64,000 nucleotides of DNA from a virus (IMGVR_UViG_3300026549_000038:96193-160192), one strand, 5' to 3'; shown: positions 12,945 through 59,430, counted from the first letter of the stretch. Translations and numbers: made by a program. Notes: generated by a model from the sequence alone, not told the origin.

Positions 12945-12970
12945 AAAAGGAAGACATTGTCTTCCTTTTT
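12943..12970. terminator. bidirectional intrinsic terminator
   Basis: AAAAAAGGAAGAC-ATT-GTCTTCCTTTTT between convergent genes. Confidence 0.85.
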
Positions 12971-13730
12971 AATTTCTAAAGTTCTTCATAATATAATCCC
13001 ATTCATCACCAGTAAGGGTTGTTTGCTTGTATGTATAATTCGTAATTTTTGCGTCTAGTAAATCATATATTTTCGAACCGCAACCTGCATCTTTACAAAC
13101 GTCGGAAAGAAACTTTCCGTTTTCAGCCCAAAAAAATTTTTTTATAATTTTTTTTGGAAGATTAGTTATTTCAAATTTATTACTCTTAATAAGTTTTGGG
13201 CATTTATCAATCGTCAGAGTATTTATCGTTTTTGGAAGATAATTAATATCTATTAAGTTTGGACAGTTTGTAAAATGATATCCGACGTATTTGGAGTCTG
13301 TGAATTTTAGATTTTCCAGACCAGACAAAGAAACCAATTCTGAATCTTGTATCTCAATTGTTACTGGCCAAGTGCGAGCGTTCTTTGTATTCATGGTGCA
13401 TCCCAGTGTAAACAACCCTTCGAGATTTTTTATTTTACAATTCCTTAAGTATATGTTTGTTGGGTTAACAATACGAGAAATGCTAAAATTAGGAGTATTA
13501 TCGAGTCCGTCAATATATAGTATGCTACCAATTGGTGCATCTATTTCAATCTTTCCGTTTTTGCAGGTTATGTTTCCCTTTTCCCATATCGAATACTCTT
13601 TGAGAAAGTCGTCTGGATGATATGTATATTTCTTGAACTCTGTCATTACTATATCATTATCAATCTTTTCGAAGTTCGGGTCCTCCGCACCGAACAGAGT
13701 CTCATTCAAATATATTGGTAACTGCTTCAT
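12969..13730 (-). CDS. LRR-like protein with capsid-targeting-like leader
   Basis: MKQLPIYLNE leader; IKNLEGL, LVSLSGL, NCPNL, KCPKL repeats; paralog of 13746..14540. Confidence 0.75.
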   Translation of the reverse strand: MKQLPIYLNETLFGAEDPNFEKIDNDIVMTEFKKYTYHPDDFLKEYSIWEKGNITCKNGKIEIDAPIGSILYIDGLDNTPNFSISRIVNPTNIYLRNCKIKNLEGLFTLGCTMNTKNARTWPVTIEIQDSELVSLSGLENLKFTDSKYVGYHFTNCPNLIDINYLPKTINTLTIDKCPKLIKSNKFEITNLPKKIIKKFFWAENGKFLSDVCKDAGCGSKIYDLLDAKITNYTYKQTTLTGDEWDYIMKNFRN

Positions 13731-13745
13731 AATTAATTCTTTCTT

Positions 13746-14540
13746 TTATTTTTTAAAGTTCTTTATGAGTTGTCTCCACTCATGAGAATATAACTGGAAC
13801 TCACTATTTGCATTTATTTCATATGGGCTACGGGAGTGGCGTTGTTGTAGATCTTCCAAATATATAACGGTTTTCGGACCACAGTCCATCTTCTTACAAA
13901 AATCTATAAAAGATATGCCGTTGTCCTTCCAATAAAACCCTTGGAATCCCGACAATGTCTTCGGAAACTGTGATATATTAAAATTGTTTTTGCCGATGCT
14001 CGGACATTTCACAATAGATAGATGATTCATTACACTAGGTAACTGCCCTAGTTCAGACAATTTATTACAATCGTTTATGAAATACATTGTGTTTTCCGGA
14101 TTCTTGTATTTTAGGTTTTCTAGCCCTTTAATAGAAGTTAGATTGTTACATCTATTTATAAGTATCTCGATTTGATCTCCGGGGCCTGTGTTTTGTATAA
14201 TACAATTTGGGGCAAATATACCTTTGAGATCCTTTATTTTGCTATCTGATATTTGTATAGCGGAACATTGTTCGATACTGGATATATTAAAATCTGGCGT
14301 ATGATCTAGATCGTGTATACGAATTGAACGAGTTAGTGAGGGGTGTGCCGGATGATAAAGCCCAATGATTTTGATTTCGCCGTCTTTGCAAGACACCTGA
14401 ACCGGTGCCCATTTTTGACCACAGTCTACATATTTTTGAAATTCTTCCAATCTCAATTGATCATTAGCAGAATTTACGAAAACGTCCTCGCCGCCACCAC
14501 TAAATAAAGATTCATTCAAATATCTTTGCAGGTTGTTCAT
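13746..14540 (-). CDS. LRR-like protein with capsid-targeting-like leader
   Basis: MNNLQRYLNESLFS leader; IKDLKGI, CNNLTSIKGL, CNKLSELGQLP repeats. Confidence 0.75.
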   Translation of the reverse strand: MNNLQRYLNESLFSGGGEDVFVNSANDQLRLEEFQKYVDCGQKWAPVQVSCKDGEIKIIGLYHPAHPSLTRSIRIHDLDHTPDFNISSIEQCSAIQISDSKIKDLKGIFAPNCIIQNTGPGDQIEILINRCNNLTSIKGLENLKYKNPENTMYFINDCNKLSELGQLPSVMNHLSIVKCPSIGKNNFNISQFPKTLSGFQGFYWKDNGISFIDFCKKMDCGPKTVIYLEDLQQRHSRSPYEINANSEFQLYSHEWRQLIKNFKK

Positions 14541-14591
14541 AAATATAATATGGGTGTTTGATATTTTATACTATATAATAAAACAACTTAT

Positions 14592-15128
14592 ATGCAATTA
14601 ACAGGAAAACAAATAATAGAAAGAGGAATTGTCACTGGGGTAGAAGCCCCGGAGCAGGTACAACAGCAAGGAATCGACGTGAGAGTGTTCTCTATATACA
14701 GTGTCGGTGGGAGGTATGGGTTCATTCCTAAGTCTGGGAAGACTATAACACCAAAACGAGAAGTGATACCGACTTCTTTTTCTGATGGAAGTGCAGTATG
14801 TTCAATCCCAGCAGGAGTAAAATATTGGTATTTAGAACCAGGTTATTACGAACTTGAACTTATGGAAGGATGTTCTATTCCAGATAATGCAACTTTGCAT
14901 TTTAAATCCAGAAGCAGTTTGGTTAGATGTGGATGTCAAGTATTTAGTGGTCAGTTTGACGCAGGATTCAAAACAGACTTTATGGGCTGTTATCTGCTCG
15001 TAACTCTTCCTGTGTACATAGAACGCGGAGCAAGAGTAGCACAGGCGATAGTCTTTGAAAGCGATCCGGTATCAAAAGATAATTTATATAACGGTCAGTG
15101 GCAAGGAGATAAACAAAGAAACTCGTAA
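14592..15128 (+). CDS. dcd: dCTP deaminase / trimeric dUTPase family protein
   Basis: QQQGIDVR, SRSSLVRCG, FDAGFK, GARVAQ, YNGQWQG motifs; exact substrate uncertain. Confidence 0.8.
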   Translation: MQLTGKQIIERGIVTGVEAPEQVQQQGIDVRVFSIYSVGGRYGFIPKSGKTITPKREVIPTSFSDGSAVCSIPAGVKYWYLEPGYYELELMEGCSIPDNATLHFKSRSSLVRCGCQVFSGQFDAGFKTDFMGCYLLVTLPVYIERGARVAQAIVFESDPVSKDNLYNGQWQGDKQRNS

Positions 15129-15132
15129 GGAT

Positions 15133-15402: not shown

Positions 15403-15411
15403 TAGAAGACT

Positions 15412-22631: not shown

Positions 22632-23942
22632 TTATTCATTTTCGGTCAGTTCTTGAGCTAGTTTACTTAGGACTGCTAATTTTACAGGGTCATTCTTGAA
22701 CTTCTCTGTCAAGTCCGCAATTCTTGTACGAATATCATCTTTCTTTTTTGTCTCCAGTTCTTCTTCGACTTTCTTGCGGTCTTCTTCATCTGCTTTGGCC
22801 ATGTAACTTTCTACAAGTTCCTTATACTTGTCTCCAAGATTAACATTGGTTTTGCTTTGGATGAAACTGATGGCCTTAACCACATCCTCGTTAATTGACC
22901 AACCAGCTGGCTGATGTTTTGAACTTAGTGACATGGCATAGATGTTGGTGTCTCCGCTTTCAATAACCATGAATGTATCACGAGCAGTTTCGTAAATACC
23001 TACGTTATCCAAAGTAGCCACGCTGTCATAGTTCTCGGCCAAGAGCGCAACAGCCTCGAGCTGTCCTGCAATCTGATACTTGAATCTAGGATTGGTTGTA
23101 GCAACGATCATGTTGTTATCTTCACGAAGTTGTTCACAAGTGACTTCTTTTGCATTGCAAGCCTTTAGAACCTCAGGGTCTTTGCAGTTGCAACCGCGAA
23201 GTCTTTCAAGAGCCTTTTTCTGACATTTGATGCAGCTGCCATCCTCACTGATGATATAAGCGTTGTTTCCAACGGTTACATAGATGTTATTATCATCAAT
23301 CTCAGCAAGATTGCTTTCGAGCAGGTTGCTAATAGTCTTAAATGTATTGGATACTTCGTTCCAAGATGCCTCTACTACGTTTTTGTCTTCTCCGATTTTG
23401 AAAAGTCGCCCGAGAACTTCAAAACAATATCCATCACCAGTATTTTCTATGAGTGAAACTGGATGTTTGCAAGTATATTCAGCTGTAGCCTCTACAACAG
23501 GAGAAGAAGCATAAACCTGTTTTGCTATATTACGGAATGCTTCGCAGTACATGACGTTTTTTAGAGCCCCGGCTTTGATATACTTCACAACGTTTTCCTC
23601 ATCCATCTCAAGAAGTTTTTCTACCTGAGAAGCGGCGTTGCGGTTAAGATAGTTATAATGAGAAGTGTTTTCGTTGATTTTCTCTACTGCGCTTGCGAGT
23701 GCCCAGGAGGTCTTGTTAGAGTTTACATAATCAAGTACACTTTCAAGCGCCTCGTTTACACCATTATCATAGCGGCACTGTGATGCTTCTTTGATAAAAC
23801 TGTTTACAAGGGAACAAGTAGACTCATTAGCCATGAGCCATTTTTTGTAATTAGTTAAAAGTGTAGAACCTGTAGTTGTTTGAGCTGATGACTCACCGAT
23901 GATCTTGTCAAACTCAAGATCTGCTAAAATCTTTTTGTTCAT
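22632..23942 (-). CDS. hypothetical protein, probably virion/prohead associated
   Basis: 436 aa; preceded by TTATTATT and followed by own terminator; several I/L-x-E sites. Confidence 0.6.
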   Translation of the reverse strand: MNKKILADLEFDKIIGESSAQTTTGSTLLTNYKKWLMANESTCSLVNSFIKEASQCRYDNGVNEALESVLDYVNSNKTSWALASAVEKINENTSHYNYLNRNAASQVEKLLEMDEENVVKYIKAGALKNVMYCEAFRNIAKQVYASSPVVEATAEYTCKHPVSLIENTGDGYCFEVLGRLFKIGEDKNVVEASWNEVSNTFKTISNLLESNLAEIDDNNIYVTVGNNAYIISEDGSCIKCQKKALERLRGCNCKDPEVLKACNAKEVTCEQLREDNNMIVATTNPRFKYQIAGQLEAVALLAENYDSVATLDNVGIYETARDTFMVIESGDTNIYAMSLSSKHQPAGWSINEDVVKAISFIQSKTNVNLGDKYKELVESYMAKADEEDRKKVEEELETKKKDDIRTRIADLTEKFKNDPVKLAVLSKLAQELTENE

Positions 23943-24940: not shown

Positions 24941-25852
24941 TTATTTTACATAAATATAAAGATATTCGTCGTGTTTATGTGGGGTTTTGTTGTTGATGTG
25001 TACGGAGCGGTTTTTTGAGAGTTTGAAAGAATATTGCGGAGTTGGTTGTGATTTCATCAGGTCTTCTCTCATGACCAAAGCATAGACCATACAAGAATCT
25101 TTCGCTAAAAATTTATTATACAAGCACGTTAAAAATTCATCAAACTCATCTGTACACGTGAATCTCCCACACTCATATATTTCGAGATTATAATATGGTG
25201 GACAGGTGAACATAACGTTAAAATCTTCTTGTGGAGTATATGATCTCGCATCTTCATTGTGGAGCTCAGCATTCCAAAAATCAAAATAAGACTTTATGCT
25301 ATCTACCTTATCATATGTGTGATACGAGAGATCGTTGTATATGTACTTTTTGATTTCTGTCGAGCCAATCATCCTATGCCCCCAACCCCCGCACGGATCA
25401 AACACAATCATCTGTTTCATGTTGATCCCCACATTATCTTGAATCCATTGATAGACCCACTTGCAGAGTTGTGGATTAAATCCTCCATAACCGTAGTAAA
25501 TCGCGCTTTTTTTGAATCCAGAGAGTATATCATAAGTATTAAGTTGATCCGGGGTTTTATTCAGGTAATACATGCGATTTTCGAGGATTTTCTTACGGAT
25601 GTCCAAATCATACCACATTGTCTTTTCAACACAGAAATAATTATCTTGTTGAAAAGCCTTCACTATCTTATTTCTGTTACAGTTCAGCGTGAGTTGTCCC
25701 CGAGGGTGATCGAGATACCAAAAGAATTCCTGGTGTAGTTCTTCGCTAGTAGGACTCCACCAGAGTTCTGGGTCGATATTCGGAAACATTTTTTCAAAGT
25801 TCGTAGTTACGTCTTCGTCTGTCAAAAAATGTTTTATATTACTATTGTTCAT
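24941..25852 (-). CDS. DNA amino-methyltransferase (m6A/m4C type)
   Basis: SAM-binding FDPCGGWG, catalytic FTCPPY; start overlaps upstream nuclease stop by 11 bp. Confidence 0.85.
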   Translation of the reverse strand: MNNSNIKHFLTDEDVTTNFEKMFPNIDPELWWSPTSEELHQEFFWYLDHPRGQLTLNCNRNKIVKAFQQDNYFCVEKTMWYDLDIRKKILENRMYYLNKTPDQLNTYDILSGFKKSAIYYGYGGFNPQLCKWVYQWIQDNVGINMKQMIVFDPCGGWGHRMIGSTEIKKYIYNDLSYHTYDKVDSIKSYFDFWNAELHNEDARSYTPQEDFNVMFTCPPYYNLEIYECGRFTCTDEFDEFLTCLYNKFLAKDSCMVYALVMREDLMKSQPTPQYSFKLSKNRSVHINNKTPHKHDEYLYIYVK

Positions 25853-27140
25853 ATAAAAATATATTTAAAACTTCTTTAAGATTTGTGGAGAATACCTCTT
25901 TCCAGTTCAATTTATGTTCTTTAACCCAGAGCCGTTTCTTAGGATCTCGGATCGTCCAAGTCTCTATGGCATTATCATAGAAGTCGCTGTGTTTGTCTTT
26001 CCAGCTTTGAAGGGTCTTCTGGTCTTGAGCCGATTCCGGATCGAACGGGTGATGACCATGAACCCAACTGCCTTGTATCTCAAGATAAAGGTTCTTATCC
26101 GGAAAATAAAAGTCACAGTTAAAAGGATACTCTTCGCTTCTGTATTGATACTTATAGTTTATATTATTCGAATCAAGCCAGTCTTTAAATTCCTTCTCGA
26201 TCTTAGACGAGTTGAATGTCCCGTTGAGTTTTTTTGTCTCATAGGATTTCTTTTGAATTTCTGATTGAATGTGTTTTATATGTTCTTTATAATTATCTGT
26301 TTGAGAATATGATTCGGCGCCGTATCGTTCGAGATTGGTCTGTCTGATTTTAGATTTGATCTCTGAAGAAGCAAATGGGTTCTCAGCACCGTATCGTTCG
26401 AGATTGGTCTTCTTTGCCTTGGACTGCACAGTCTCGTTCTGCATAGGATTCTCTGTTCCGTATCGTTCGAGATTGGTCTGTCTGATTTTAGATTTGATCT
26501 CTGAAGAAGCAAATGGGTGAGAGACCCCGTAGTGTTCAATGCTTGTGGAGCGGATCTTTTCTTTAAAAGATTTTGTTTTGCTGTAGTGATCTACGCCGTA
26601 TGTGTCCAACAGGGATTCTTTAAAGTTTTGTCGCACAGTCTCGTTCTGCATAGGATTCTCTGTTCCGTATCGTTCGAGATTGGTCTTCTTTGTCTTAGAT
26701 CGCACAGTCTCGTTCTGCATAGGATTCTCTGTTCCGTATCGTTCGAGATTGGTCTTCTTTGTCTTAGATCGTATGGTGTAGTATTTTTCTTTAAAAATAT
26801 TATTGAACTCTTTGGTTTTAGAAAAGTTATCTACACCGTATCGTTCGAGACAGGACGTGCGCGACAGGTCTTTTTTGTTTGGGTCGTTGTTGGAACATCG
26901 TCTGCAGCAGTATTTGCGGTAGCCAACCGTACGATTTTCGAAAACAACCCTGCTACTGCAGACTCTACAGACCGGTCGGACATCTAAATTATTCTGAAAA
27001 CGATAGAGCCTCTCAGAGAACGAATCGCTGTCAGTATAATGAGTCATTAGGTATGAATAGAGTTCTGGATAGTTCCTTTGGAAGTATCTTGAGTCGATCG
27101 ATGGAAATTTTTTGTGTTTGAATTGTTCCAAATCCTGCAT
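25842..27140 (-). CDS. homing-type endonuclease: Zn module + TNLERYG repeats + Vsr/DUF559-like PD-(D/E)XK domain
   Basis: CRVC...YCCRRC; 23-aa repeats; CDFYFPDKNLYLEIQGSWVHG; likely start ATG27140 (MQDLEQF). Confidence 0.8.
   Translation of the reverse strand: MQDLEQFKHKKFPSIDSRYFQRNYPELYSYLMTHYTDSDSFSERLYRFQNNLDVRPVCRVCSSRVVFENRTVGYRKYCCRRCSNNDPNKKDLSRTSCLERYGVDNFSKTKEFNNIFKEKYYTIRSKTKKTNLERYGTENPMQNETVRSKTKKTNLERYGTENPMQNETVRQNFKESLLDTYGVDHYSKTKSFKEKIRSTSIEHYGVSHPFASSEIKSKIRQTNLERYGTENPMQNETVQSKAKKTNLERYGAENPFASSEIKSKIRQTNLERYGAESYSQTDNYKEHIKHIQSEIQKKSYETKKLNGTFNSSKIEKEFKDWLDSNNINYKYQYRSEEYPFNCDFYFPDKNLYLEIQGSWVHGHHPFDPESAQDQKTLQSWKDKHSDFYDNAIETWTIRDPKKRLWVKEHKLNWKEVFSTNLKEVLNIFLYEQ
26632..26771. 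repeat. perfect 69-bp tandem duplication (RSKTKKTNLERYGTENPMQNETV x2)
   Basis: CGCACAGTCTCG... starts at 26632 and again at 26701. Confidence 0.9.
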
Positions 27141-27184
27141 TATATTAATATAATGAAAGTCCAACATGTATTTATTAAATATAC

Positions 27185-27935: not shown

Positions 27936-29918
27936 ATGAAAATCCCAAAAATAGAAGAACTAGATTCCCCAAAGAAAATGGGAAGCCTATATTTGAAGAA
28001 ACACTACCCGGAATTTTACCAATACCTTTGTAACAAATATAAAGGTTATCCTATAAAAAAGACCACCGAACTTGTATACCTTTATTACAATGAATTGTCT
28101 GAACCACACAGGTGCCCGGTCTGTGACAAATACACCACATTTCTCGACTACAAAAGAGGATATCAAAAGTACTGTGGGCTCAAATGTTCTAATTCTGACC
28201 CGGAAGTCAAAGCCAAAAAAGACGCAACATCAATAAAGAAATTCGGAGTTGCTCACGCGGCTCAAAATGCGTCCATAAAAGAAAAACTCATCAAGACTTA
28301 CACTGAGAGACATGGTGGCATGGGCAACGCTAGTTCGGCCGTGCAGAAGAAACAGCAGGCCACTATGGAAGAAACTTATGGTCATAAACACGCCATGCAG
28401 AACCCAGAGATACTTAAGAAATCTCAAGACACTCTCGAGAGCCATTACGGAGTCAGAAACACTTTCAAATCGGATCAAATTAGAGAAAAAATTAAGCAGA
28501 CTAATTTAGAAAGATATGGAGTAGAATATGGTCTTATGGCAGAAGAAATTAGAGAAAAAATTAAGCAGACTAATTTAGAAAGATATGGGGCAGAATGTAA
28601 CTTGTGTTTGCCAGCAATGCGCGAGAAAATCCGAAGGACTAATATAGAAAAATACGGCTCGTCAGAACCGTTTAAAGCCAAAGACATTAAAGAAAAAATC
28701 AAACAAACCAATCTCGAAAGATACGGAGACGTTATTCCGATGAGAACCGATAACATAAAGAAAAAAGTCCAACAAACCAATCTCGAAAGATATGGAGTAG
28801 ACAACCCTTCTAAATCACAGGATGTTGTAAACAAAATAATTGAAATCAAACGAGCAGCTGCAATTGATAAAATAGAAGATTTGTTGGGATATACAGAAGA
28901 AGGGGATTGGATTCGTAAGTGTCCGCACCAGGGATGTAATAAGTGTAATGAAAAAACTTATATAATATCTCCCGAACATTATCGCACACGTAAAGCATCC
29001 AACACAGAGCCATGCACAAATATTCTTCCCGTTCAACAAGGAAGATTATCTGGTACGTCTATAGAATTGTTTGTAAGAGATGTGCTTGATAAAAACCATA
29101 TTGAATATATTACTAATGATCGTACAGTTCTAGAAGGTAAAGAACTTGATATATATATTCCAAAATATCGTCTTGCAATAGAATGTAATGGTATTTACTG
29201 GCATTCATCAGCATGGAAAGATGTTAAATATCACTTTGATAAATACATCAAGTGCGCCCAGGCTGGAATTCAACTGCTTACTATCTGGGAAGATCAAATA
29301 GTTAACAAACCAGAAATAGTAGAATCCATCATCTGTTCTAAATTGGGAATATATGATATTCATGTTGGTGCTCGATTATGTAGCGCACGTGAAATTCCAC
29401 AGAGCACAGCCAAACAATTCCTGAACAAATATCATCTTCAAGGTTCTGTAGTGTCTAAATATAATATAGGTTTATTTTACAAAGATGAACTGGTGTCTGT
29501 TATGACGTTCGGGAGAAAACGCAGGGCTCTTGGAAACAAATCTGCAAGACCTACAGAGTTTGAATTATATCGTTATTGCACAAAATCTGGTGTTCAAATT
29601 ATTGGCGGTGCCTCAAAATTATTGAAATATTTTATAGATCACTACAACCCGACTATCATCGAATCATTTTCCTCTAATGATATTTCAAACGGCTCTCTTT
29701 ATGGATCTCTTGGTTTTTCCAGGGTCAGCGAAACATATGGTTCTTATTGGTACATAGATGAAAACCTAAGAAGATATCATAGGTTTAACTTTACCAAAGG
29801 AAAACTAGTGAAAGAAGGAGCAGACCCAAACTTATCAGAATCTGAAATCATGATGAACTTAGGATATACGAGGATTTATGATAGTGGTCAGACTAAATGG
29901 ATTTTAAAATTACATTAA
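27936..29918 (+). CDS. Hef-like homing endonuclease: Zn module + repeats + PD-(D/E)XK domain + C-terminal GNAT-like domain
   Basis: ELDIYIPKYRLAIECNGIYWHS; HLQG, ELYRYC, GGASKLLKYF, LYGSLGF, IYDSG. Confidence 0.8.
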   Translation: MKIPKIEELDSPKKMGSLYLKKHYPEFYQYLCNKYKGYPIKKTTELVYLYYNELSEPHRCPVCDKYTTFLDYKRGYQKYCGLKCSNSDPEVKAKKDATSIKKFGVAHAAQNASIKEKLIKTYTERHGGMGNASSAVQKKQQATMEETYGHKHAMQNPEILKKSQDTLESHYGVRNTFKSDQIREKIKQTNLERYGVEYGLMAEEIREKIKQTNLERYGAECNLCLPAMREKIRRTNIEKYGSSEPFKAKDIKEKIKQTNLERYGDVIPMRTDNIKKKVQQTNLERYGVDNPSKSQDVVNKIIEIKRAAAIDKIEDLLGYTEEGDWIRKCPHQGCNKCNEKTYIISPEHYRTRKASNTEPCTNILPVQQGRLSGTSIELFVRDVLDKNHIEYITNDRTVLEGKELDIYIPKYRLAIECNGIYWHSSAWKDVKYHFDKYIKCAQAGIQLLTIWEDQIVNKPEIVESIICSKLGIYDIHVGARLCSAREIPQSTAKQFLNKYHLQGSVVSKYNIGLFYKDELVSVMTFGRKRRALGNKSARPTEFELYRYCTKSGVQIIGGASKLLKYFIDHYNPTIIESFSSNDISNGSLYGSLGFSRVSETYGSYWYIDENLRRYHRFNFTKGKLVKEGADPNLSESEIMMNLGYTRIYDSGQTKWILKLH

Positions 29919-41130: not shown

Positions 41131-42335
41131 AAACTTTAAGTCAGTATATTATTGAAGGTGGTGCGAGCGGGCATATGATGCACCCAACAGACTATATAGA
41201 CTTCACTGGGGAAGATCTGATTGAATTAGTACAGTCATTGTTTAGCGGAGAAATAGAAGATGTTACTGAAAAGATTGACGGGACTAATATCCAGGCGACT
41301 ATGAACCCAAGTGGAGAAGTCGTTTTTATAAGAAACAAGTCCGATCTCAACAGTGCTCGCGGCGGAATGACTATTGACGATATGATACTGAAGTGGAAGG
41401 ATAAACCAGGTATTGCAAAAACCTTTGTAGATGCCGGAAGAATAATCACTAAAGTATTCCAAAAAGTAGGTAAGTCTTTTTTCAACCCCAACCCATCAAC
41501 GAAATTAGTTTTAAATTGCGAATGTGTGACTGAAGGCATTACAAATGTCATTCCTTATGGGTCAGCGCAGGTAGATTTCCATGATATATGGGTGTACAAA
41601 AAAGATGGAGACGTGTGGGTGAAAGATACAGTTACTAAAACTGGATTAAACGTTATAGAAAAAGCTTGCGAAGGGGTTGACAATGCACAACTAACACCGA
41701 AACTCATATTTCAGTTAACGAAGGATTCAGATAAATACCTGGAAAAGTATAAAGAAGATATAAAGAAATTGTTTAATCCTATAACTCAAACCATTGATGA
41801 GTGGAGAAAAAAGAAATTTATCGAATACATATATGAATCCGATTATCGTTGGATTATGGATTCTAAAGAGGGGTTAGAAGCTCTATATGAGAGATGGTTC
41901 AACGGAGTTAAGGCAGTGAATATGAGGCAATTATGCCAATGGTACTCAAAAAATGCCGATGAACTTAAAGAAATAGATAAGAAAAAATATAAGGATATTG
42001 TTTCAGAAATAATGGCTCCGCTAGATACTTTATTCCTTAAAATCGGAAACAGTGCTATAAAAATGTTCGGTGGGATGCTTAACAGTGGATCAACAACAGC
42101 ATCGAGGATTCTTATTAATAATCTTAATTCAACAATCAAAGAATTGTCTAAAGATCCGGACCAAGAAACTCAATCCAAACTCATCAATCAGCTTAATAGA
42201 CTTAATAGGATTGGTGGAGAAGAATCAATCAACGCCTCAGAAGGAATAGTCTTTAGATATAAAGGAAGGCTCATGAAGCTCACAGGTTCATTCGCTCCTT
42301 TAAATCAAATACTTGGACTTAAAAAATTTGATTAA
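41127..42335 (+). CDS. ligase-like nucleotidyltransferase-fold protein with capsid-targeting-like leader
   Basis: MKTLSQYIIE leader; GHMMHP, TEKIDGTN (KxDG), EGIVF, KLTGSF; coupled to upstream gene (ATGA). Confidence 0.65.
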   Translation: MKTLSQYIIEGGASGHMMHPTDYIDFTGEDLIELVQSLFSGEIEDVTEKIDGTNIQATMNPSGEVVFIRNKSDLNSARGGMTIDDMILKWKDKPGIAKTFVDAGRIITKVFQKVGKSFFNPNPSTKLVLNCECVTEGITNVIPYGSAQVDFHDIWVYKKDGDVWVKDTVTKTGLNVIEKACEGVDNAQLTPKLIFQLTKDSDKYLEKYKEDIKKLFNPITQTIDEWRKKKFIEYIYESDYRWIMDSKEGLEALYERWFNGVKAVNMRQLCQWYSKNADELKEIDKKKYKDIVSEIMAPLDTLFLKIGNSAIKMFGGMLNSGSTTASRILINNLNSTIKELSKDPDQETQSKLINQLNRLNRIGGEESINASEGIVFRYKGRLMKLTGSFAPLNQILGLKKFD

Positions 42336-42342
42336 TACATAT

Positions 42343-43737: not shown

Positions 43738-44994
43738 ATGAAAAATTTAAACGAACATATTATACAACAGAAGAACGAAGTAGCAGACACTAACGAAGTA
43801 GTTGGCCTGCTGCTCGGTCTTTCATGCCTTGCTTTTGCATCCAAAGGCAGCCAAGCTATGACAAACCTCACTGCCCCATTCGCTAATTTGTTTGGTGGGT
43901 TGTTCGGAAGGTTTAAGAAAGAAACTCCAGAAGAGGAGAAGAAAAGACTTGAAGCTGAGATTAAAAAAGAGAAAGATAAACTTGAGGTTGAAAAACTCCG
44001 CAAAGAACTCGAAAAACTCCGCAACGGAGAAGATGTCGATGATGACGATGATAAGAAGAAAGATAAGAAACTCAGTGAAGAGGAAATGTTTGATTCTAAA
44101 TTGATTGCCCTCAAGATAGCAAAAGATGCAAATGAGGATGAGCAAGATCCTGAAAAGAAAAAGAGGATCGACGACATGATCAAAATGCAAGAGAATGCTA
44201 TGTTTGATGATAACGGCAATCCGAGGAAGTGTGCTGACATCGAAAAGGAGATGCGCAAGATGCTTCCGAAAGATGCAGACCTTGGTGAGTTCGAAAAGAA
44301 ACAAAACGAGCTTCTTAAGAAACTCGAAGAACCGGAATTGCAGTCACAACTCAAAAAACAAATCAAAAATATATCTAACGACGATCTTCGTGAGATTAAG
44401 AGTAATGCTAGAATCGGTGCTGCAGAAACCAAAAAGGAAATCGCTGAAGCCTCAAAGAAAGGTGAGATTCCTGATTTTATGAAAGGTGCATGTGCGGAGA
44501 TGGGTCTTCCGGAGCCAACGCAAGAAAATGTACCTATGTTGAATCCTCCAAAGGAAGAACCAGAAAAGAAGGAAGAACCAGAAAAGAAGGAAGAACCAGA
44601 AAAGAAGGAAGAACCAGAAAAGAAGGAAGAACCAGAAAAGAAGGAAGAACCAGAAAAGAAGGAAGAACCGACAGCAGATGAAATCGAACAGATGCAGAAA
44701 GATTACGCTGATGCTGAACCTGGATCTGATAAAGCAAAAGAACTAGAAGGAAAATTGAAAGCCGCAAATGCCGATGTACCTAAGACAGAAACTGATAAAG
44801 AGGGGAGACCTAAACAAAAACGTACAGGCCCACGCGGAGGAAAATATTTTAGAACAAAAGTTGACGGAAAATGGGGAGAATGGCAATCAGATACAAATGA
44901 AAATCTAAAATGGTATTTGGCTGATAAGCTGAGTCAGACAGCAGAATCAAAAACATCAAAGCTAACAGAATACATCAACAAAGTACTCGGTTAA
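43738..44994 (+). CDS. highly charged putative head-internal protein with KEEPEK repeats
   Basis: MKNLNEHI leader, hydrophobic segment, K/E/D-rich body, TGPRGGKYF motif; upstream of protease. Confidence 0.65.
   Translation: MKNLNEHIIQQKNEVADTNEVVGLLLGLSCLAFASKGSQAMTNLTAPFANLFGGLFGRFKKETPEEEKKRLEAEIKKEKDKLEVEKLRKELEKLRNGEDVDDDDDKKKDKKLSEEEMFDSKLIALKIAKDANEDEQDPEKKKRIDDMIKMQENAMFDDNGNPRKCADIEKEMRKMLPKDADLGEFEKKQNELLKKLEEPELQSQLKKQIKNISNDDLREIKSNARIGAAETKKEIAEASKKGEIPDFMKGACAEMGLPEPTQENVPMLNPPKEEPEKKEEPEKKEEPEKKEEPEKKEEPEKKEEPEKKEEPTADEIEQMQKDYADAEPGSDKAKELEGKLKAANADVPKTETDKEGRPKQKRTGPRGGKYFRTKVDGKWGEWQSDTNENLKWYLADKLSQTAESKTSKLTEYINKVLG
44551..44669. repeat. perfect 18-bp tandem repeat x6.6 (KEEPEK)
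   Basis: AAGGAAGAACCAGAAAAG repeated from 44551. Confidence 0.95.
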
Positions 44995-45046: not shown

Positions 45047-46489
45047 ATGTCAAATAAAACATTTATATTTGAAACACTGAATGATGTTAAAGGAATGTCT
45101 GCAAAGAAAGACGGTGAGTTTATGACTCTTAGTGGTGTCTTTGGAGTTTGCGGAGTTCGAAACAATAACAATCGTGTTTATGAAACATCTAACTATTCAA
45201 AGATGGTTTCAGAAATGAAAAAACGAATCAAAGAAGAAGGTGGTATCCCTGGAGAACTTGAACATCCTCAGATGATGAACATTACTCTCGAAAATATCAG
45301 CCATAAAATTACTGATATCAACATAGACGAGAACGGCGTGGTTAGTGGTAGCATTACTTTGCTGAATACTCCAAAAGGAAAGATAGCTCAAGCTATTGTC
45401 GAAGGCGGACTTCCTCTTTATATTAGTTCTAGGGCAACTGGATGTGTCGATCAGAAGACTGGTGCCGTTACACTTGAGAGGCTTGCTACTTATGACCTCG
45501 TAGGATCTCCGGGATTCTCTCAGGCAAAGCTTCATCTAAACGAAAATCAGATAGCTGAATCAATCAATGAAAATATTTATTATATCACCGAAAAAGAAAC
45601 AAAAGAAAATAATACAGAACAAGATATGGATACAAAAGAAATTCTCGAAAGGCTCGAATCTCTTGAGAATACAGTTAAAGACCTGCAGCAGGAGAACGAA
45701 AAACTTAGAGAGAGCGCGAAAGATAACATTCAAACAATCGCAGAAGGAGTTCAAAGCTGGATCGTTGAAGAGTACAGCCCAATGATTCAAAAGTGGATCG
45801 TTGAAGAATACGAACCAGAGGCAAAGAGCAAAATCCTCGAAAGTGTTGATACTGAATCTATTATGAACAACGTTAAGACTATGATCTCTGAAAAGGTTGC
45901 TCCTGCAATCCAGGATTGGATCGTTGAAGAGTATAGCCCAATGATTCAGGGTTATTTAACTGAAGAATATAGTCCTGTTGTAGAAAAGTGGATCGTTGAA
46001 GAAATTGCTCCTGGTATTCAAAATTGGATTACTGAAGAGTTCAGTCCGGTTCTCGATGAGTATATGACAGAAAACATCAAAACTCAGGCTGCAAGTATTG
46101 TAACCGAAGCTATTAACGAAAGCAAGAAAAATAGTTTAAGTTCAATAGAAGATACATTGAAGCTTCTTGAGGGCATGGAAGTCACAAAACCCACATATCA
46201 ATCTAAGACCATTGTTACTGAATCAGCTAATGAGCCTATGTTCATTGCACAGATGCCTGCTGAACTCAGACCAAAGTGGGATATGGCTTCAAAAGATGTT
46301 AAAGAAAGCATCACTCGCAGAGCAAAACTTTACAATTTCAATAACGAAGGAGCAACTCAAAGATTCTGGGAAAGTATTAACTTTGATGAAATTAAACCAA
46401 CGAGTGCCGTTTATGAGGGGCTAGATCAGATCGAAGATCAAAGAGAGAGAATGATCCGTGAAAGTCTCCGTAAGTGGATGAAGAAGTAA
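45047..46489 (+). CDS. gp21: prohead protease (T4 gp21-like) fused to scaffold-like region
   Basis: RNNNNRVY, GELEHP, ISHKI, TPKGKI, ISSRATG, YDLVGSPG; C-terminal WIVEEYSP repeats. Confidence 0.92.
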   Translation: MSNKTFIFETLNDVKGMSAKKDGEFMTLSGVFGVCGVRNNNNRVYETSNYSKMVSEMKKRIKEEGGIPGELEHPQMMNITLENISHKITDINIDENGVVSGSITLLNTPKGKIAQAIVEGGLPLYISSRATGCVDQKTGAVTLERLATYDLVGSPGFSQAKLHLNENQIAESINENIYYITEKETKENNTEQDMDTKEILERLESLENTVKDLQQENEKLRESAKDNIQTIAEGVQSWIVEEYSPMIQKWIVEEYEPEAKSKILESVDTESIMNNVKTMISEKVAPAIQDWIVEEYSPMIQGYLTEEYSPVVEKWIVEEIAPGIQNWITEEFSPVLDEYMTENIKTQAASIVTEAINESKKNSLSSIEDTLKLLEGMEVTKPTYQSKTIVTESANEPMFIAQMPAELRPKWDMASKDVKESITRRAKLYNFNNEGATQRFWESINFDEIKPTSAVYEGLDQIEDQRERMIRESLRKWMKK

Positions 46490-47572: not shown

Positions 47573-49288
47573 TTATAATAATTTTTTATACCACTTAATG
47601 TGACCGCTATCGTATATTTTCCAGTAAGGTAAAGAAGCCATAATCTGGGATTCCGTATTGTGTTCTATATCATACCCCATTTGTTCAAGCTTTCTTTTGG
47701 TGAATGATGTTCTATGATATCTGTGCAAGTCGTTTTTATTTATATACCAATATGCTCCTGTTATTTTTCCATCGCTCGAGAATCCCAAACTTTTATAAAG
47801 TCCACCATTGCTAATATCATTAGATGAAAACGATGTGATAGATTTTGGGTTATATACATTAATAAAATAACTCATAAGTTTCCCAGCTGCTCCTACCACT
47901 TGAGTATTCAATTTTGTACAAAATCTGGTCAATTCCCAATCAGTCTTGCTGTTTCCGGTATTTCCGGAAAGTTGTGATCGTTTATTAAAAGTCATAATAC
48001 CCACACATTCTTTATCCTTAAATATACCTAAACTAACCTTAGCTGGACATGTTCCTTGTATGTGGTTGCTGTTTAAAAATTCCGTTTTTGTTTTTGAATC
48101 CACTTCGAGAATCTCACAATTCCTGGCGTATATTCTATTTTTATATATTCCTAATTTAGAAAGTAATATTGACTTAATAATCTCAGAGTGTATCTTCACC
48201 TGATCTTCCCAGATAGTTAACAATTGAATATTTTTATCTCGGCATTGTTTAAATTTGTTAATATGATAACTACTGTTTTTTAACTCAGTGGAATGCCAAT
48301 AACACCCATTACATTCTATCGCAAGTTTGTGACTTGGTATGTATATGTCAATTTCTCCTGCGATGATGTCTCTTACATTACAGCGATAATTTATATCATA
48401 TTCATCTAATATATCTCTTATAAAAATTTCTATACTTGATATGTTTGGAGAAACTGGAAGTAATTTTGTACAAGTTTCAATACCGTTATAAATCCTGTGG
48501 AAATATACTTCAGAATTAATATTATATTGTTTGTTGGTGCATTTATCACAGCTTGGATTTGAACATTTTATGGTATATATTGTATTTCCATCAAGCATTT
48601 GAATATCAATGACATTTGGATATTTGTTGGTAATTTTATTTTTTATAGAATTTATATAATTATCAAATATTTTAGGATTAGGATGCGCACTCCCATATCT
48701 TTCGAGATTTGTCCGTTGAATTTTTTGTTGTATCTGCTCCGAGGCACCGGCCCAGTTAACTCCATATCTTTCGAGATTTGTCTGTTGAACCTTTTTCTTT
48801 ATGTTGTCAGTCCTCATTGGAATAATGTCTCCATATCTTTCAAGATTGGTTTGCGCTGTTTTTTCCGCTAACTCTTTTGATGCAAACCCTATACCCCCGT
48901 ATTTTTTTAAATGAGTATCTTTAACTTTTTTATTAACCCCCGGGATCTGAGATATATTAGAAACTTCATATTTTGTTTTAACTGTGGATAATGTTCTTTT
49001 TATTCTCTCAGGTGAAGACTCAGAGCATTCCCGACTGCAAAATTTTTTATAACCCTTATTAAAATTTACATATTTGGTTGGTTTACCACACATCTCACAA
49101 ACCGGTGCATGATTTATTTGATTAAAATACCAGTATAATTTTTCAGAAATAGTTGTTAAAAAATTATATTTATTGTTTATAAATTCATAAAAGTCTGGGT
49201 AATTTAATCTAATAAATTTATCTTGACATGCGTGCTTTGAATTTTCGGATATAAATGCTTTTGTTGGTTGGCTTATTTTGTGAGTCAT
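47573..49288 (-). CDS. Hef-like homing endonuclease with C-terminal GNAT-like domain
   Basis: CEMC...FCSREC; TNLERYG repeats; EIDIYIPSHKLAIECNGCYWHS; HIQG, ELTRFC, GAAGKL, LYKSLGF, IYDSG. Confidence 0.8.
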   Translation of the reverse strand: MTHKISQPTKAFISENSKHACQDKFIRLNYPDFYEFINNKYNFLTTISEKLYWYFNQINHAPVCEMCGKPTKYVNFNKGYKKFCSRECSESSPERIKRTLSTVKTKYEVSNISQIPGVNKKVKDTHLKKYGGIGFASKELAEKTAQTNLERYGDIIPMRTDNIKKKVQQTNLERYGVNWAGASEQIQQKIQRTNLERYGSAHPNPKIFDNYINSIKNKITNKYPNVIDIQMLDGNTIYTIKCSNPSCDKCTNKQYNINSEVYFHRIYNGIETCTKLLPVSPNISSIEIFIRDILDEYDINYRCNVRDIIAGEIDIYIPSHKLAIECNGCYWHSTELKNSSYHINKFKQCRDKNIQLLTIWEDQVKIHSEIIKSILLSKLGIYKNRIYARNCEILEVDSKTKTEFLNSNHIQGTCPAKVSLGIFKDKECVGIMTFNKRSQLSGNTGNSKTDWELTRFCTKLNTQVVGAAGKLMSYFINVYNPKSITSFSSNDISNGGLYKSLGFSSDGKITGAYWYINKNDLHRYHRTSFTKRKLEQMGYDIEHNTESQIMASLPYWKIYDSGHIKWYKKLL

Positions 49289-49386: not shown

Positions 49387-51705
49387 TTATCTAATTGTTG
49401 AACTAATCTCGCCTGTTCTGTGAATAGTCAACTGATGAACCATCTTACCAGCACCCCGGGCAGGCTCGATGTGTGTATCTAGTACCAGCATCTCGTTGTC
49501 TATGATCTCAGGGGTATTGTTTGTGCTGTCACAGATATTCAAGAAGTCGTATACACCACCATTGTTCTGAACAGTCTCAAGAATACTATCTGCCTTTGCT
49601 TTGATAGTATCACGAAGCTCTTGAGTATTTAACTCCCACTGATAGTTCTGAAGCAAGTTAGCAACTTCATCTGTGAGATAGATAACCAGTTCACGAACAT
49701 GGATTTTACTCAATGCACTTACAGGAGCTTGTTTTGCAGTCTGATTACTATTGATGTAAGTACCAAGTCTCGGTGTGTAAACAATGGCGTTAATTCCTGC
49801 AGGCTCGAGGATATCAAGCTCGCTACGGGCAAATCCATATTCTGGACCAACCATTCCTGTAGCGCTTAGTCTTCCGTAAGTAGGACCAGCAACTATGTAA
49901 TAAGGTTGTCTTGCTCCGTATTTGTTCATGAAGTTATTAGATACCAATCCAACACTTGGAACAATGTTTCTAACTGTGCCATCGCTGAACAATAGTGGAG
50001 TAAAGTATGCACAGTAACTTGCACCGTCACTCTCGCCGGCGATCGGATACTTCTGTACAACAGCGTTCATGTCTACTGTGTGTGCTGTAGTGTCTATAAC
50101 GCTTGAACCGAAGTCCTTAATAGCAGGGAAGTTAATCAATGCAAGTGCATTTTCTTTTGCCTGGGCAAGTGCAGCGAACTTAGCATGTAACGTTGCTGTC
50201 TCAGGGGTAGCCTTAAATGAATCAAGAATATAGTGATATTCAACATCAACCCTGTTAGTCAAAGCCTCATGGATTCCTTTATAATCAAGAACATCCATGC
50301 AAGATCTCATAATCTGAGTTCCTGGAGTACTCTGCGAAATTGTTGTGTAGTTATAACCTTCTACATATCTTTCTTGAATACCCTGATTGTAAATTGGACT
50401 GTTTACATCATTTACAGTTGTCCAGCCATTGTATGGAAGTGTCTTGTATTCAGTCAGAGGGGTCAATGCAGTGTCAAGTCTCAACTCGTTAAGTTTCATC
50501 ATAAGTTTGTGGCTATCGTAATCAGCATTTAGAGCAACATCTATAGAAATATAATTTCCGTTAGCGTCCTTGAAGTAAGGGAATATGATACCTCTATATG
50601 ATCCAATGAATCTGCTATTTGGATCGCGTGCAAGAGCAAGAAGTACGTCAGCATCCTGTCCAAAAGCATCCTTATAGTCTTCGCGAATCTTTGAATAATT
50701 TGCTGCAGGCACTGGTGTTTCGTCGTCATAATCAACAGCAGAAGCAATAGTTGAATCGATTTCGTCAGCCAGTGCTTTAGCAGCAGCACGAACGCTAGCT
50801 TGTTTTTCGGCATCGCTATCAGTATAGTTTTTAGCCATGGTATTCAAAGTAGTTACGTCTTCGAGAGCAGTCTGGATAGTTGCAACTGTAGCTGTAGGGA
50901 CACCTTCAATACCGTGAAGTGGCTTGCCGGTAGCAGTAGCTGCTGTAATTTCAGCATTTACATCAGCAACCATTTTTGCTATATCTGCCGCAGATGGGTA
51001 GAAATACTTACTCAGTGCGCCTGACTTAACCGCGGGTGTAAACTGGCCTTGGAATACAAATATATCTTCGAAATATTCATCGAGATATGTATCTAAGATG
51101 CTTGCGTCTTCCAAATAAGACGGGATTTCATCCACGCTTTCATTGTTGAACCAACTGCGTACTGTTAAGTGATAATTGGTTGTATATGTCTTAGGAGTCT
51201 TACGAATGAATACAGTGGTGCTGTTTTCTTTTGAATCAGTTGCAGTCAAAATACTGTATACATTGTTAAAAGAACTTGCCATTTCTGGAAGATGATCCGG
51301 ATCTAGAGTCCAGAACTTAGTAGTATCATAAAGATCTGTTACATTTACACTGGTTCCTTCTGCCGGCATTGCGGATACAAAATTGTCGGACCCATATGCT
51401 TTAACAGTTTCAGTTGTGAACGGTTTAAGATTCAGTGCAAGAATCGACCCATTGCCTAATGCCTGATCTGAAATCCTATGAAAATACACACCTTTGCGTT
51501 CAAGCCTCTTGCTTGCTTTTCCAAATGTATTAATAAAATCAGTTTTGCTATTTACATATACTGGTGTATTGAACGGTCCCCTTTCGCTGTAACCAATCAC
51601 CAACCTCAATGTCTCTGCTACTTGAGTAGGGACAGTACTTTTATCCCATATAAATCTGTAAATACCACTAGATTTTATACTTTGAAGATGTAATGGAATA
51701 CTCAT
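49387..51705 (-). CDS. gp18: contractile tail sheath protein (T4 gp18-like)
   Basis: SSGIY...GYSERGPFNTPVYV...FG; C-terminal AGPTYG, GINAI, SALSKIHVREL, CDSTNNTPEIID. Confidence 0.93.
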   Translation of the reverse strand: MSIPLHLQSIKSSGIYRFIWDKSTVPTQVAETLRLVIGYSERGPFNTPVYVNSKTDFINTFGKASKRLERKGVYFHRISDQALGNGSILALNLKPFTTETVKAYGSDNFVSAMPAEGTSVNVTDLYDTTKFWTLDPDHLPEMASSFNNVYSILTATDSKENSTTVFIRKTPKTYTTNYHLTVRSWFNNESVDEIPSYLEDASILDTYLDEYFEDIFVFQGQFTPAVKSGALSKYFYPSAADIAKMVADVNAEITAATATGKPLHGIEGVPTATVATIQTALEDVTTLNTMAKNYTDSDAEKQASVRAAAKALADEIDSTIASAVDYDDETPVPAANYSKIREDYKDAFGQDADVLLALARDPNSRFIGSYRGIIFPYFKDANGNYISIDVALNADYDSHKLMMKLNELRLDTALTPLTEYKTLPYNGWTTVNDVNSPIYNQGIQERYVEGYNYTTISQSTPGTQIMRSCMDVLDYKGIHEALTNRVDVEYHYILDSFKATPETATLHAKFAALAQAKENALALINFPAIKDFGSSVIDTTAHTVDMNAVVQKYPIAGESDGASYCAYFTPLLFSDGTVRNIVPSVGLVSNNFMNKYGARQPYYIVAGPTYGRLSATGMVGPEYGFARSELDILEPAGINAIVYTPRLGTYINSNQTAKQAPVSALSKIHVRELVIYLTDEVANLLQNYQWELNTQELRDTIKAKADSILETVQNNGGVYDFLNICDSTNNTPEIIDNEMLVLDTHIEPARGAGKMVHQLTIHRTGEISSTIR

Positions 51706-57470: not shown

Positions 57471-57507
57471 CCGATTTATTATTATAATTAAAAAAAATTA
57501 TCTATCA

Positions 57508-58152
57508 ATGAAACATTTACACGAATTTATAGTAGAAAGTGCTACCAATTTAAAGGTAAATTCGAAGGCTGCCGCAAAGAGCAGGGCGCTTACCGAGCTG
57601 AAAAAATATTCCTATGACAACTTGGATACGAGAGGCCGTAAAACTAGTGTTTGGGAACTTGGATTCTTATCCGAAACAGCTAACGGAATCGTTGTTGAAT
57701 TTCCAAAGACTAAGTCCGACTGCAAGTTGTATATCTGTGATGTAAAGAAGCTGAATGTTCCATTTAATATTTGTAAGCTTTCTGGGAACGGTGTGGTAGA
57801 CATTATTGAAACTGGTCTTACTTCACTCGAAGAAGTTTTCACCGCAGACTGCAAGGGAGCAAAGAAAGTAGATTTGTATCTTTGGGGCAATAAGGATTTA
57901 GTATCACTGAAGAACTGTCCAGATTTAGTTAATCATTTTACCAGCGAGTATAATGAGAAGCTGGACGACTGGGAAGGCGCGCCTAAGAATTGTCACGAAT
58001 TTGAATACTACGATTCCTATAAGGGGATTTCTTATAGCAACCCTTCAATTGGTTGGGGAGGAGATAGTTATAATGATAAGATGGCCCGCAGACGTCAGCG
58101 AATGCAAGCATTCGATGAATGGAAAGAACACATTGATAAGTGGACTATTTAA
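57508..58152 (+). CDS. LRR-like protein with capsid-targeting-like leader
   Basis: MKHLHEFIVES; LTSLEEVF, LVSLKNCP, WEGAP. Confidence 0.75.
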   Translation: MKHLHEFIVESATNLKVNSKAAAKSRALTELKKYSYDNLDTRGRKTSVWELGFLSETANGIVVEFPKTKSDCKLYICDVKKLNVPFNICKLSGNGVVDIIETGLTSLEEVFTADCKGAKKVDLYLWGNKDLVSLKNCPDLVNHFTSEYNEKLDDWEGAPKNCHEFEYYDSYKGISYSNPSIGWGGDSYNDKMARRRQRMQAFDEWKEHIDKWTI

Positions 58153-58173
58153 TCAGGTTCGTGCACAATTTCA

Positions 58174-58203
58174 AAAAGACATCTTCATAGAGATGTCTTT
58201 TTT
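58174..58203. terminator. intrinsic terminator
   Basis: AAAAGACATCT...AGATGTCTTTTT. Confidence 0.8.
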
Positions 58204-58220
58204 GTTATTATATATATGTT

Positions 58221-58658
58221 ATGAAATCATTAGCAGAATACGTAGTTAAAAATTTCGGGATATATGATCCGGCCATCAGTCATGGGTTTATATTAATTAA
58301 ACCTGGAGAAGACTCTCACACTCAGGAAATTATAGAGATGTTTGAAAATGAGGGTTGGACTGTTTGTAAAATGAGAACAAAGGTCCTGCTCAGAAGCGAG
58401 GCACAGAAACTCTATGAACCGCATAAGAAAGAAGAATGGTTTAAACCGCTGGTCGAATACATGACCAGTGGTCCTTGTACTGGTATCATTATCAGTCATA
58501 ATGGGTGGGCAACGGATAAAAAAGACTTTAAAGAAATTGCAAAAATCAAAGATGTGGTTCGTGAAAAATGGGGTGAAAGCGAAATGAGAAATGTTTTACA
58601 CAGTTCTGATAGCGAAGAAAGATTTAAAATAGAAGCTGGTATATTTTTCTGGCTGTAA
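58221..58658 (+). CDS. ndk: nucleoside diphosphate kinase
   Basis: LIKP, LYEPHKKEEWFKPLVEYMTSGP, RNVLHSSDS (catalytic His). Confidence 0.9.
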   Translation: MKSLAEYVVKNFGIYDPAISHGFILIKPGEDSHTQEIIEMFENEGWTVCKMRTKVLLRSEAQKLYEPHKKEEWFKPLVEYMTSGPCTGIIISHNGWATDKKDFKEIAKIKDVVREKWGESEMRNVLHSSDSEERFKIEAGIFFWL

Positions 58659-58680
58659 TCATTAAAAAAGAATCAAAACA

Positions 58681-59430
58681 ATGGAAGATCTTAAATTATA
58701 TGTTAACGAATCATTGTTTTCTGATAATGATGAGAATGCTGTTATCCAATCCGCTGAGGAACAAATAGATAAAGAAAAAACCGAAAAATTGTTGAATTGG
58801 CCTGGTGTCAACTTCCGTGAATTGCATCGTCGTGGTTCGATAATAAAATATGAGAACGGGGGACTATCAATGTTCATCAACGAACCGGACTTATTGATTG
58901 TTTTCTCAGATATTCCAAGTTCTTTATTGCCATTGAACATTGAGCGTATAGTATTATCACCAAAAGTAAGACGATCTGCAAGAGTAATAATATTGTTCCG
59001 CGATTTTAAAATTAAAGATTGTACGGAGTTGTTCACCCCGAACTTTGATGATAATATGAGTGCTAATCCTAACTGTGAGTTGGATATATCTTTCAGTGGA
59101 GTTTCTTTAAATAATTATAAGGGTCTTCCTCAGAAAGTGGCGAAATTTGCAGAGAATGTGGAGGGTTATATGCCATACAATGTAAATTACTTTAAACAAC
59201 ATTATAAAGGAATCCCTCAAAACATATCACGTCAATTGGTGTTGGCGGATAAGTCTGCTCCCAGACGCAGATATGATACTACCATACTTAACTCCGGTGA
59301 TCCGCTTGTCTATAGTGGTGTGAATATTGAGAATCTGGAAAAGATTAAAGTAGTATATGACTATTTAGATCCAAATTGTGAAATAGCTAAATATATGTTA
59401 AAACAAATTAAACGAGCAGAGCAAAAATAA
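58681..59430 (+). CDS. divergent LRR-like protein with capsid-targeting-like leader
   Basis: MEDLKLYVNESLFS; IKDCTELFTPN, LNNYKGLP, YKGIP. Confidence 0.7.
   Translation: MEDLKLYVNESLFSDNDENAVIQSAEEQIDKEKTEKLLNWPGVNFRELHRRGSIIKYENGGLSMFINEPDLLIVFSDIPSSLLPLNIERIVLSPKVRRSARVIILFRDFKIKDCTELFTPNFDDNMSANPNCELDISFSGVSLNNYKGLPQKVAKFAENVEGYMPYNVNYFKQHYKGIPQNISRQLVLADKSAPRRRYDTTILNSGDPLVYSGVNIENLEKIKVVYDYLDPNCEIAKYMLKQIKRAEQK

Follow-up and report, generated by a model that had tools for sequence, protein, structure and literature searches.

Ten leucine-rich-repeat paralogs of a T4-type gut phage bear a leader resembling a capsid targeting sequence

We analyzed a 64,000-nucleotide stretch of viral DNA (IMGVR_UViG_3300026549_000038:96193-160192; hereafter the window), which is the final 64 kb of one IMG/VR contig of 160,192 bp. 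A first-pass annotation of the window had pointed to seven dispersed leucine-rich-repeat (LRR) paralogs with a common N-terminal leader and had proposed that they form a repertoire of virion-delivered binders. The source is an uncultured gut phage, namely a large myovirus whose head module is of T4 type. The results show that ten open reading frames (ORFs) of the contig, all of which bear the leader, are old paralogs of one small protein, and their sequence pattern marks them as short capped LRR domains, a fold that structural models suggest as well. The leader resembles the capsid targeting sequence (CTS) of phage T4. The most likely reading, to which we assign a probability of roughly 0.55 on the basis of sequence, models and analogy with T4, is that these LRR proteins are loaded into the prohead as cargo, clipped by the prohead protease, carried in the head and delivered. 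Genes are named below by their first coordinate (Table 1).

As a control for the leader, we cut residues 1-14 from every protein of the genome and seeded a hidden Markov model (HMM) on 24302, 46547 and 57508. The first round recovered, with strong scores, three additional members close to the start of the contig, together with 13746 (E 1e-5), 12969 (E 7e-5), and 51800 and 58681 (both about 1.5e-3), while the first noise appeared at 0.09. In the next round 51800 and 58681 improved to 3e-9 and 1e-4, respectively, and the set closed at ten, with noise beginning about 1000-fold weaker. Homology due to the leader alone is therefore ruled out. The divergent paralogy claimed for the seven ORFs holds, since the leader-less profile unites them with the three others across a clean gap to noise, and the family size has to be corrected from seven to ten. 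The coordinates given for the seven were exact and their frames intact, and each has an intact full-length ortholog of 70-96% identity in other samples, indicating that all seven are maintained genes; the ortholog of 12969 found in another sample is 96% identical. The tandem genes 12969 and 13746 are 30% identical to each other (BLAST, E 4e-28). The layout described for the seven is seen in our alignment A1, which runs from the leader (M-K-x-I/L-x-x-Y-I/L-x-E) through S-I/L-F, an acidic run and a long helix ending in E-L/F-x-K-Y, a motif that is absent from 58681 as had been noted. There follow a poorly conserved beta region, the motifs K-I-S-K-F and D-L-x-x-x-F-T-P-D-C, two clear repeats (LxIxxCxxLTSLxGxP..V, then xFxCxxNxxLxSIEGAP) with the tandem 20-30-residue LxxLxLxx(N/C)xL skeleton, F-x-W-x-x-N-G and a C-terminal helix.

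Structure prediction was run on 24302, the canonical member, and on 58681, the most doubtful one. The AlphaFold2 models reached a predicted local distance difference test score (pLDDT) of 90.9 and a predicted template modeling score (pTM) of 0.84 for 24302 (20-row alignment, residues 1-20 at low confidence), and a pLDDT of 81.6 and a pTM of 0.79 for 58681. Far from being unrelated folds, both models display the same order of elements, namely a leader helix, a long helix, a short helix and strands about 21 residues apart. When compared with 48,161 chains using VIA-align (50 rows per model), both mostly returned LRR or L-domain solenoids, with best Z scores of 7.8 for 24302 and 6.7 for 58681, values that do not settle the fold by themselves; the matches include LANP/ANP32, U2A', SDS22, Roco, internalins, SspH1, IpaH, YopM, XopL, FBXL and TLRs, and LANP occurs in both lists, at rank 4 for 24302 and rank 1 for 58681. 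A Foldseek search of the PDB gave nothing at E ≤ 0.001, its weak list being full of LRR proteins, and BFVD yielded a single unnamed protein of a phage (A0A8D4GLZ7, E 4e-4), besides weak LRR/FNIP matches from giant viruses.

A search of 1.84 billion representatives with the A1 profile yielded 6813 proteins (E ≤ 1e-3), the majority of which contain multiple repeats and align repeatedly, up to 19 times, to profile positions ~124-165; their unit has 21-22 residues, C-x-x-C-x-x-L-x-S-L-E-G-A-P-x-x-V-x-G-x-F (LTSLEGAP type). One relative, P0025, passes Pfam LRR_4 (39.8 bits, cutoff 27), and a Vibrio phage protein contains eight perfect 21-residue units, NNLTSLEGAPQSVQGNF (NNLTSLEGAP type). An HMM of the unit, built from such outside relatives, detected one or two units in eight of the ten paralogs. 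The first-pass claim of LRR repeats is thus upheld as regards the presence of LRR units, only one or two of which per protein are recognizable by sequence, while the models show about 4-5 rungs. The repeats in A1, the two models and the LRR-dominated structure matches together argue for an LRR-type solenoid, and we conclude that the paralogs are short capped LRR domains of about 4-5 rungs, LRR by sequence pattern. LRR domains are general protein binders. A PHROG scan of the seven window paralogs gave no match, a locus search in IMG/VR found no relative of 24302, and for the C-terminal ~350 residues of 51800 nothing informative came from Pfam, PHROG or the protein atlas.

Two groups of known LRR proteins help to place this fold. 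The type III effectors YopM, IpaH and SspH, whose repeats are 20-22 residues long ("LTSLP"), share with the paralogs a 21-22-residue unit with an x-N/C-x-L-T-S-L core and, in concept, the delivery of LRR binders into a target cell. YopM, SspH1/2 and IpaH7.8 are also the best PDB sequence matches to the family profile, although these are weak (E 0.012-0.05 over ~40 residues, 9 of 14 rows) and not significant alone. They differ in the second half of the unit, which is EGAPxxVxGxF in the paralogs and not PxLPxxL, and in the delivery route, which here would be the phage head; moreover, neither an NEL ligase domain nor a type III signal was found in the paralogs (Pfam for domains). ANP32/LANP and U2A' are short LRRs with 4-5 rungs between N- and C-terminal caps, and they are among the best structural matches (2jqd, Z 7.3 and 6.7; 1a9n, Z 6.7 and 5.4). 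However, they are eukaryotic nuclear proteins of 9-15% identity, and with Z in the common range of the tool the resemblance is one of architecture only.

The leader of the paralogs resembles the T4 CTS. T4 IPIII starts with MKTYQEFIAE↓A (T4 record; the arrow marks the cut, predicted in the case of our genes) and 24302 with MKDIKEYIDE↓S, which agree in length and in the key positions. In the T4 tag, for which 10 residues are enough, targeting depends on positions 4 and 7 and processing on positions 8 and 10 (review, PMC9026906). These four functional positions are conserved here as well, where the conserved positions are 1, 2, 4, 7, 8 and 10, plus 11-13. No segment is as well conserved as the leader in the 24302 subfamily (13 sequences, 42-79% identity), where its mean column entropy is 0.27 bits compared with 0.93-1.28 in all other segments and where variation is concentrated outside the hydrophobic skeleton. 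The low pLDDT of the leader in both models places it outside the fold. Its codons vary between copies (Ser AGT/TCT/TCA/AGC; Leu CTG/TTA/CTC/TTG), indicating selection on the peptide and not on the DNA; we had considered a DNA or RNA element, which the differing codons rule out. While all seven window paralogs do carry the leader as claimed, it is not specific to LRR proteins: a looser protein pattern finds it on 17 genes of the genome, and at least seven of its bearers have unrelated, non-LRR bodies. A back-translated leader pattern matched 11 gene starts in the genome and 0 in the reversed control. Within positions 1-6000 of the contig, five tandem minus-strand genes (690, 1367, 1993, 2771 and 3402) have near-identical leaders; 1367, 2771 and 3402 are LRR genes and 690 and 1993 have a different body, so that two cargo types alternate in one array.

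We then compared the end of the leader with the window's prohead protease. This protein contains 13 hydrophobic-x-E-(S/A/G) sites, that is 2.71 per 100 residues, a six-fold excess over the genome mean of 0.45 (Poisson p ~5e-7), most of which fall in its C-terminal extension. Its N-terminus reads FIFE-9↓T, in parallel to LIE-9 of T4 gp21 (PMC9026906). The residue past the Glu is S/G/A/T in the protease sites and S/G/T in the leaders. In Chryseobacterium phage MA9V-2, a cultured relative, four annotated genes start with MKxFxxF(I/V)NE, two of them in the head module, one directly upstream of the protease, and the annotated "prohead core protein serine protease" (166979-170602 of the record) is a 1207-residue protease-scaffold fusion with ~19 x-(I/V/A)-N-E↓(S/A/G) sites. 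The leader end of the clade is thus a repeated motif of its protease and scaffold proteins, as expected of a prohead-protease cut site, an indirect indication that the leader is probably cut after Glu10 by the prohead protease. Between residues ~235 and ~345 the window's protease also repeats a 12-residue unit, W-I-V-E-E-Y-S-P-x-I-Q-x, six or seven times in tandem; the core of this unit (aromatic-I-x-E-E/S-aromatic) resembles the Y-I-x-E-S-I-F of the leader and might dock the tag or compete with it.

The window encodes T4-type head machinery that would read such a leader, namely a Gp23-type capsid protein, a Gp20-type portal and an S77/S80 protease; the Pfam matches of the head module (protease, Gp23 and Gp20) are PF03420 at 36.9 bits (cutoff 27), PF20034 at 35.4, PF07068 at 88.7 and PF07230 at 243. 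Genes for a baseplate wedge, a DNA polymerase and a sigma factor are also encoded, and CheckV puts the completeness of the contig at 81%. By capsid protein, the nearest named relatives (31-38% identity) are the Lak megaphages, Tenacibaculum PTm1/pT24, Chryseobacterium MA9V-2 and Sphingomonas PAU, all huge or jumbo phages of Bacteroidota and others.

Leader and repeat occur together in other phages. Among the best 147 representative hits of the A1 profile, 33 start with the strict leader, and a shorter variant, MKSLxESLLDD, opens many more. One member of the LRR family was also found on a 201-kb contig, and on a 209-kb contig a protein with the leader and 12 repeats adjoins a T4 gp13 homolog. 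Lak-B5 has two leader-plus-LRR ORFs, L012:1108-2172 (MNKLIKKLMEGLFDD) and L013:1009-1926 (MNKNIRRLIESLFDD). Huge Bacteroidota phages such as Lak thus share leader and repeat with the present phage, along with a major capsid protein of 32-33% identity, but the Lak genes are unannotated, read TAG as Gln and have more repeats. The family profile found no match in LR756500. In our literature searches, no description of CTS-tagged LRR families was found, including the Lak leader-plus-LRR genes.

The comparison with G001 (IMG/VR UViG 3300028048_000138), a partial relative of 68.7 kb with ~30 shared genes, is informative about how the tagged genes evolve. Shared proteins are 28-62% identical, the ortholog of 51800 being lowest at 24%; the slot of 57508 is empty in G001 and that of 58681 is filled by an unrelated ORF. 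Moreover, a minus-strand gene of G001 (2162-3193, 343 residues) starts with MKHLSQYIIEGLFD, nearly the leader of 41127 (MKTLSQYIIEGG), and the two bodies have no BLAST similarity, which looks like the same tag on swapped cargo. On this evidence, the tagged genes are accessory genes that evolve fast and lie in variable slots among the core genes, as do the internal protein genes of T-even phages. The LRR genes, scattered on both strands, occupy such slots, in keeping with the placement next to core genes that had been reported for them.

Based on these observations, we infer the following mechanism. The leader would act like the T4 CTS, its amphipathic helix docking the newly made protein on the prohead scaffolding core; the S77/S80 prohead protease would then cut past Glu10 (Y-I/L-x-E↓S/G), and the mature LRR protein would stay in the head alongside the DNA until it is expelled into a Bacteroidales host at infection. 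There, the variable surface formed by the LRR and the beta region would bind a host protein, defense proteins being one possibility. The LRR architecture of the family and the way it evolves make it plausible that the ejected proteins bind host components, and an anti-defense role may be surmised by analogy with T4 IPI (PMC3012670). The virion-delivered binder repertoire that the first-pass annotation had put forward is supported in part, by the paralogy, the LRR fold, the CTS-like leader, the head machinery and the variable slots, with the corrections that the repertoire has ten members and that the tag is not LRR-specific.

The system is best classed with the tagged internal proteins of T4-type phages. 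It shares with IPI, IPII and IPIII of T4 and the T-even phages (and with Alt; processed by gp21) a 10-residue leader that is hydrophobic at 4, aromatic at 7, Ile/Leu at 8 and Glu at 10 before a small residue, the use of one leader on unrelated, diverse bodies that vary between related phages, and a capsid protein, portal and protease of T4 type. What sets it apart is the LRR cargo, the large repertoire and the extended tag. The bodies have no sequence or fold relation to IPI-III, with no PHROG or Pfam match and no T4 match to the family profile, and the cargo is a ten-member LRR family instead of the small basic proteins of T4. Conservation passes the cut site into S-I/L-F and the acidic run, and the ~17 tagged genes of this 81%-complete genome are several times the T4 number.

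Several observations weigh against packaging and delivery. The residues past the cut (S-I/L-F, then acidic) are also conserved, which a simple clip-off tag does not need, and the isoelectric points of the mature paralogs are near neutral (5.0-9.1). Many distant repeat relatives do not have the leader, and the LRR function is thus independent of it. The family profile has no match in RaK2, GAP32, T4, PTm1, PAU or MA9V-2, so that no link to a published virion proteome could be made; the paper on MA9V-2 contains no proteomics. As to the fold, the structure-match Z scores of 6.7-7.8 fall in a range that VIA-align rates as common, and Pfam gives no LRR or other family for the seven paralogs (E up to 1). 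Finally, 7 of the 17 leader genes are preceded by the motif TTATTAT(A/T), yet in this AT-rich genome the motif also precedes many other genes, whatever their class, and gives no early/late distinction.

Some of these points would suit proteins that are made after infection, take over the host from its cytoplasm and are never packaged, the shared N-terminus being a common helix that serves, for example, to dock a partner, to stabilize the protein or to start translation efficiently. Such proteins would equally exploit the general binding capacity of LRR domains, and conservation that runs past the putative cut (E-S-I/L-F and acidic residues), a promoter motif silent on expression timing, and genes on both strands that are not confined to the head module are all compatible with them. 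We nevertheless regard this explanation as unlikely, given that leader and T4 CTS agree in length and at four functional positions, that the leader ends in a motif enriched in the protease, that MA9V-2 has an equivalent leader on head-module genes whose end is shared with ~19 scaffold sites, and that the differing codons speak against a role at the mRNA level.

The leader and protease evidence fits just as well a packaged protein that acts only inside the head, in assembly, DNA packing or pressure control, and has no host target; T4 internal proteins are indeed partly structural and DNA-associated (PMC3012670). Ten diverged copies, a gene content that varies between relatives, a divergence that is the fastest among the shared genes, and variation concentrated outside the hydrophobic skeleton fit an externally driven repertoire of binders better than a housekeeping structural part, and the proteins are not notably basic, which makes this explanation rather improbable. 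Adhesins on the virion surface or tail, displaying LRR modules for host or mucus binding, would recall the LRR domains found in other jumbo phages on proteins with a predicted role in host recognition (Goslar preprint), and some copies do adjoin sheath and baseplate-region genes. However, the proteins are small (~200 residues) and have no recognizable anchoring domain, no match to tail-fiber or decoration families was found in Pfam or PHROG, and a leader that is clipped off, as in internal proteins, would be in keeping with loading into the interior, so that we hold adhesins to be very improbable. Prohead-loaded, clipped and delivered LRR cargo thus remains the reading that we prefer.

Should the tag indeed load these proteins, the capsid payload would be much larger and more varied than in the T4 paradigm, with ~17 tagged genes and ten LRR binders, and LRR solenoids would be a new class of virion-delivered phage effectors. 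The leader and cut motif would then provide a sequence rule by which injected proteins could be predicted in gut phages that have not been cultured, Lak megaphages among them, and the targets of these natural binders could point to defense systems of Prevotella/Bacteroidales; in engineering such phages, the tag might also be used as a handle for packaging. Another role for the tag would be informative as well, since the tag is widespread. More tentatively, and with the odds against it, T4-type phages of Bacteroidota, from 200-kb genomes to Lak, might keep diversifying capsid-addressed LRR binders whose tag is clipped and which are injected before gene expression, each for a different host protein, e.g., a defense sensor or a nuclease. 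Phages would then have a pre-loaded equivalent of the arsenals of LRR effectors that bacterial pathogens inject.

Table 1. LRR paralogs, other leader-bearing genes and T4-type head and tail genes (window positions, or contig positions where so marked; arrow, predicted cut; aa, amino acids)
Feature	Coordinates	Strand	Leader	Remarks
LRR paralog, 253 aa	12969-13730	-	MKQLPIYLNE↓T	Tandem partner of 13746
LRR paralog, 264 aa	13746-14540	-	MNNLQRYLNE↓S	One additional rung
LRR paralog, 200 aa	24302-24904	-	MKDIKEYIDE↓S	Modeled reference member
LRR paralog, 212 aa	46547-47185	-	MININQYITE↓S	Directly past the protease gene
LRR paralog, 548 aa	51800-53446	-	MEKFSKILE↓S (9 residues)	LRR part ~1-200, then ~350 aa, no known fold
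LRR paralog, 214 aa	57508-58152	+	MKHLHEFIVE↓S	BLAST to 24302, E 5e-10
LRR paralog, 249 aa	58681-59430	+	MEDLKLYVNE↓S	Most divergent member, without ELxKY motif
Further LRR family member	contig 1367-1978	-		Near contig start
Further LRR family member	contig 2771-3382	-		Near contig start
Further LRR family member	contig 3402-3989	-		Near contig start
Leader, non-LRR body, 234 aa	15621-16325	-	MKSLVNYIKE↓S	Not a family member
Leader, non-LRR body, 84 aa	24026-24280	-	MKNIQSYIKE↓G	
Leader, 402-aa body	41127-42335	+	MKTLSQYIIE↓G	Weak RNA-ligase-like match
Leader, non-LRR body, 116 aa	47200-47550	-	MRHLIDYINE↓S	
Leader, non-LRR body, 240 aa	60381-61103	+	MKPLNLYLNE↓G	Beside the portal gene
Leader, non-LRR body	contig 690-1358	-		
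Leader, non-LRR body	contig 1993-2757	-		
Gp23-type major capsid protein	32919-34640	-		T4-type head context
Gp20-type portal protein	61154-62995	-		T4-type head context
Prohead protease	45047-46489	+		S77/S80 domain (~residues 1-210) and C-terminal extension; predicted leader-clipping enzyme
Tail sheath	49387-51705			

Further observations concern other genes of the window. A propeptide of the major capsid protein may be cut at V-Y-E↓G (residues 40-43, the Glu being residue 42), ahead of the Gp23 domain match, which starts at residue 99. A minus-strand gene at 22632-23942 (436 residues) has nine hydrophobic-x-E-(S/A/G) sites, or 2.06 per 100 residues, among the highest densities of the genome; it adjoins two tagged genes, is 57% conserved in G001 and is a candidate prohead core or internal protein. 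Just ahead of the protease gene, 43738-44994 on the plus strand encodes a highly charged protein of 418 residues with one hydrophobic segment, seven tandem EEPEKK repeats and a leader-like start, MKNLNEHIIQ, with Gln and not Glu at position 10; it may be a scaffold or core protein. The structural region is broken up by four homing/HNH endonuclease-like genes (phrog_3339/559; 25842-27167, 27936-29918, 31734-32792 and 47573-49288), two of which are paired with methyltransferase-like genes.

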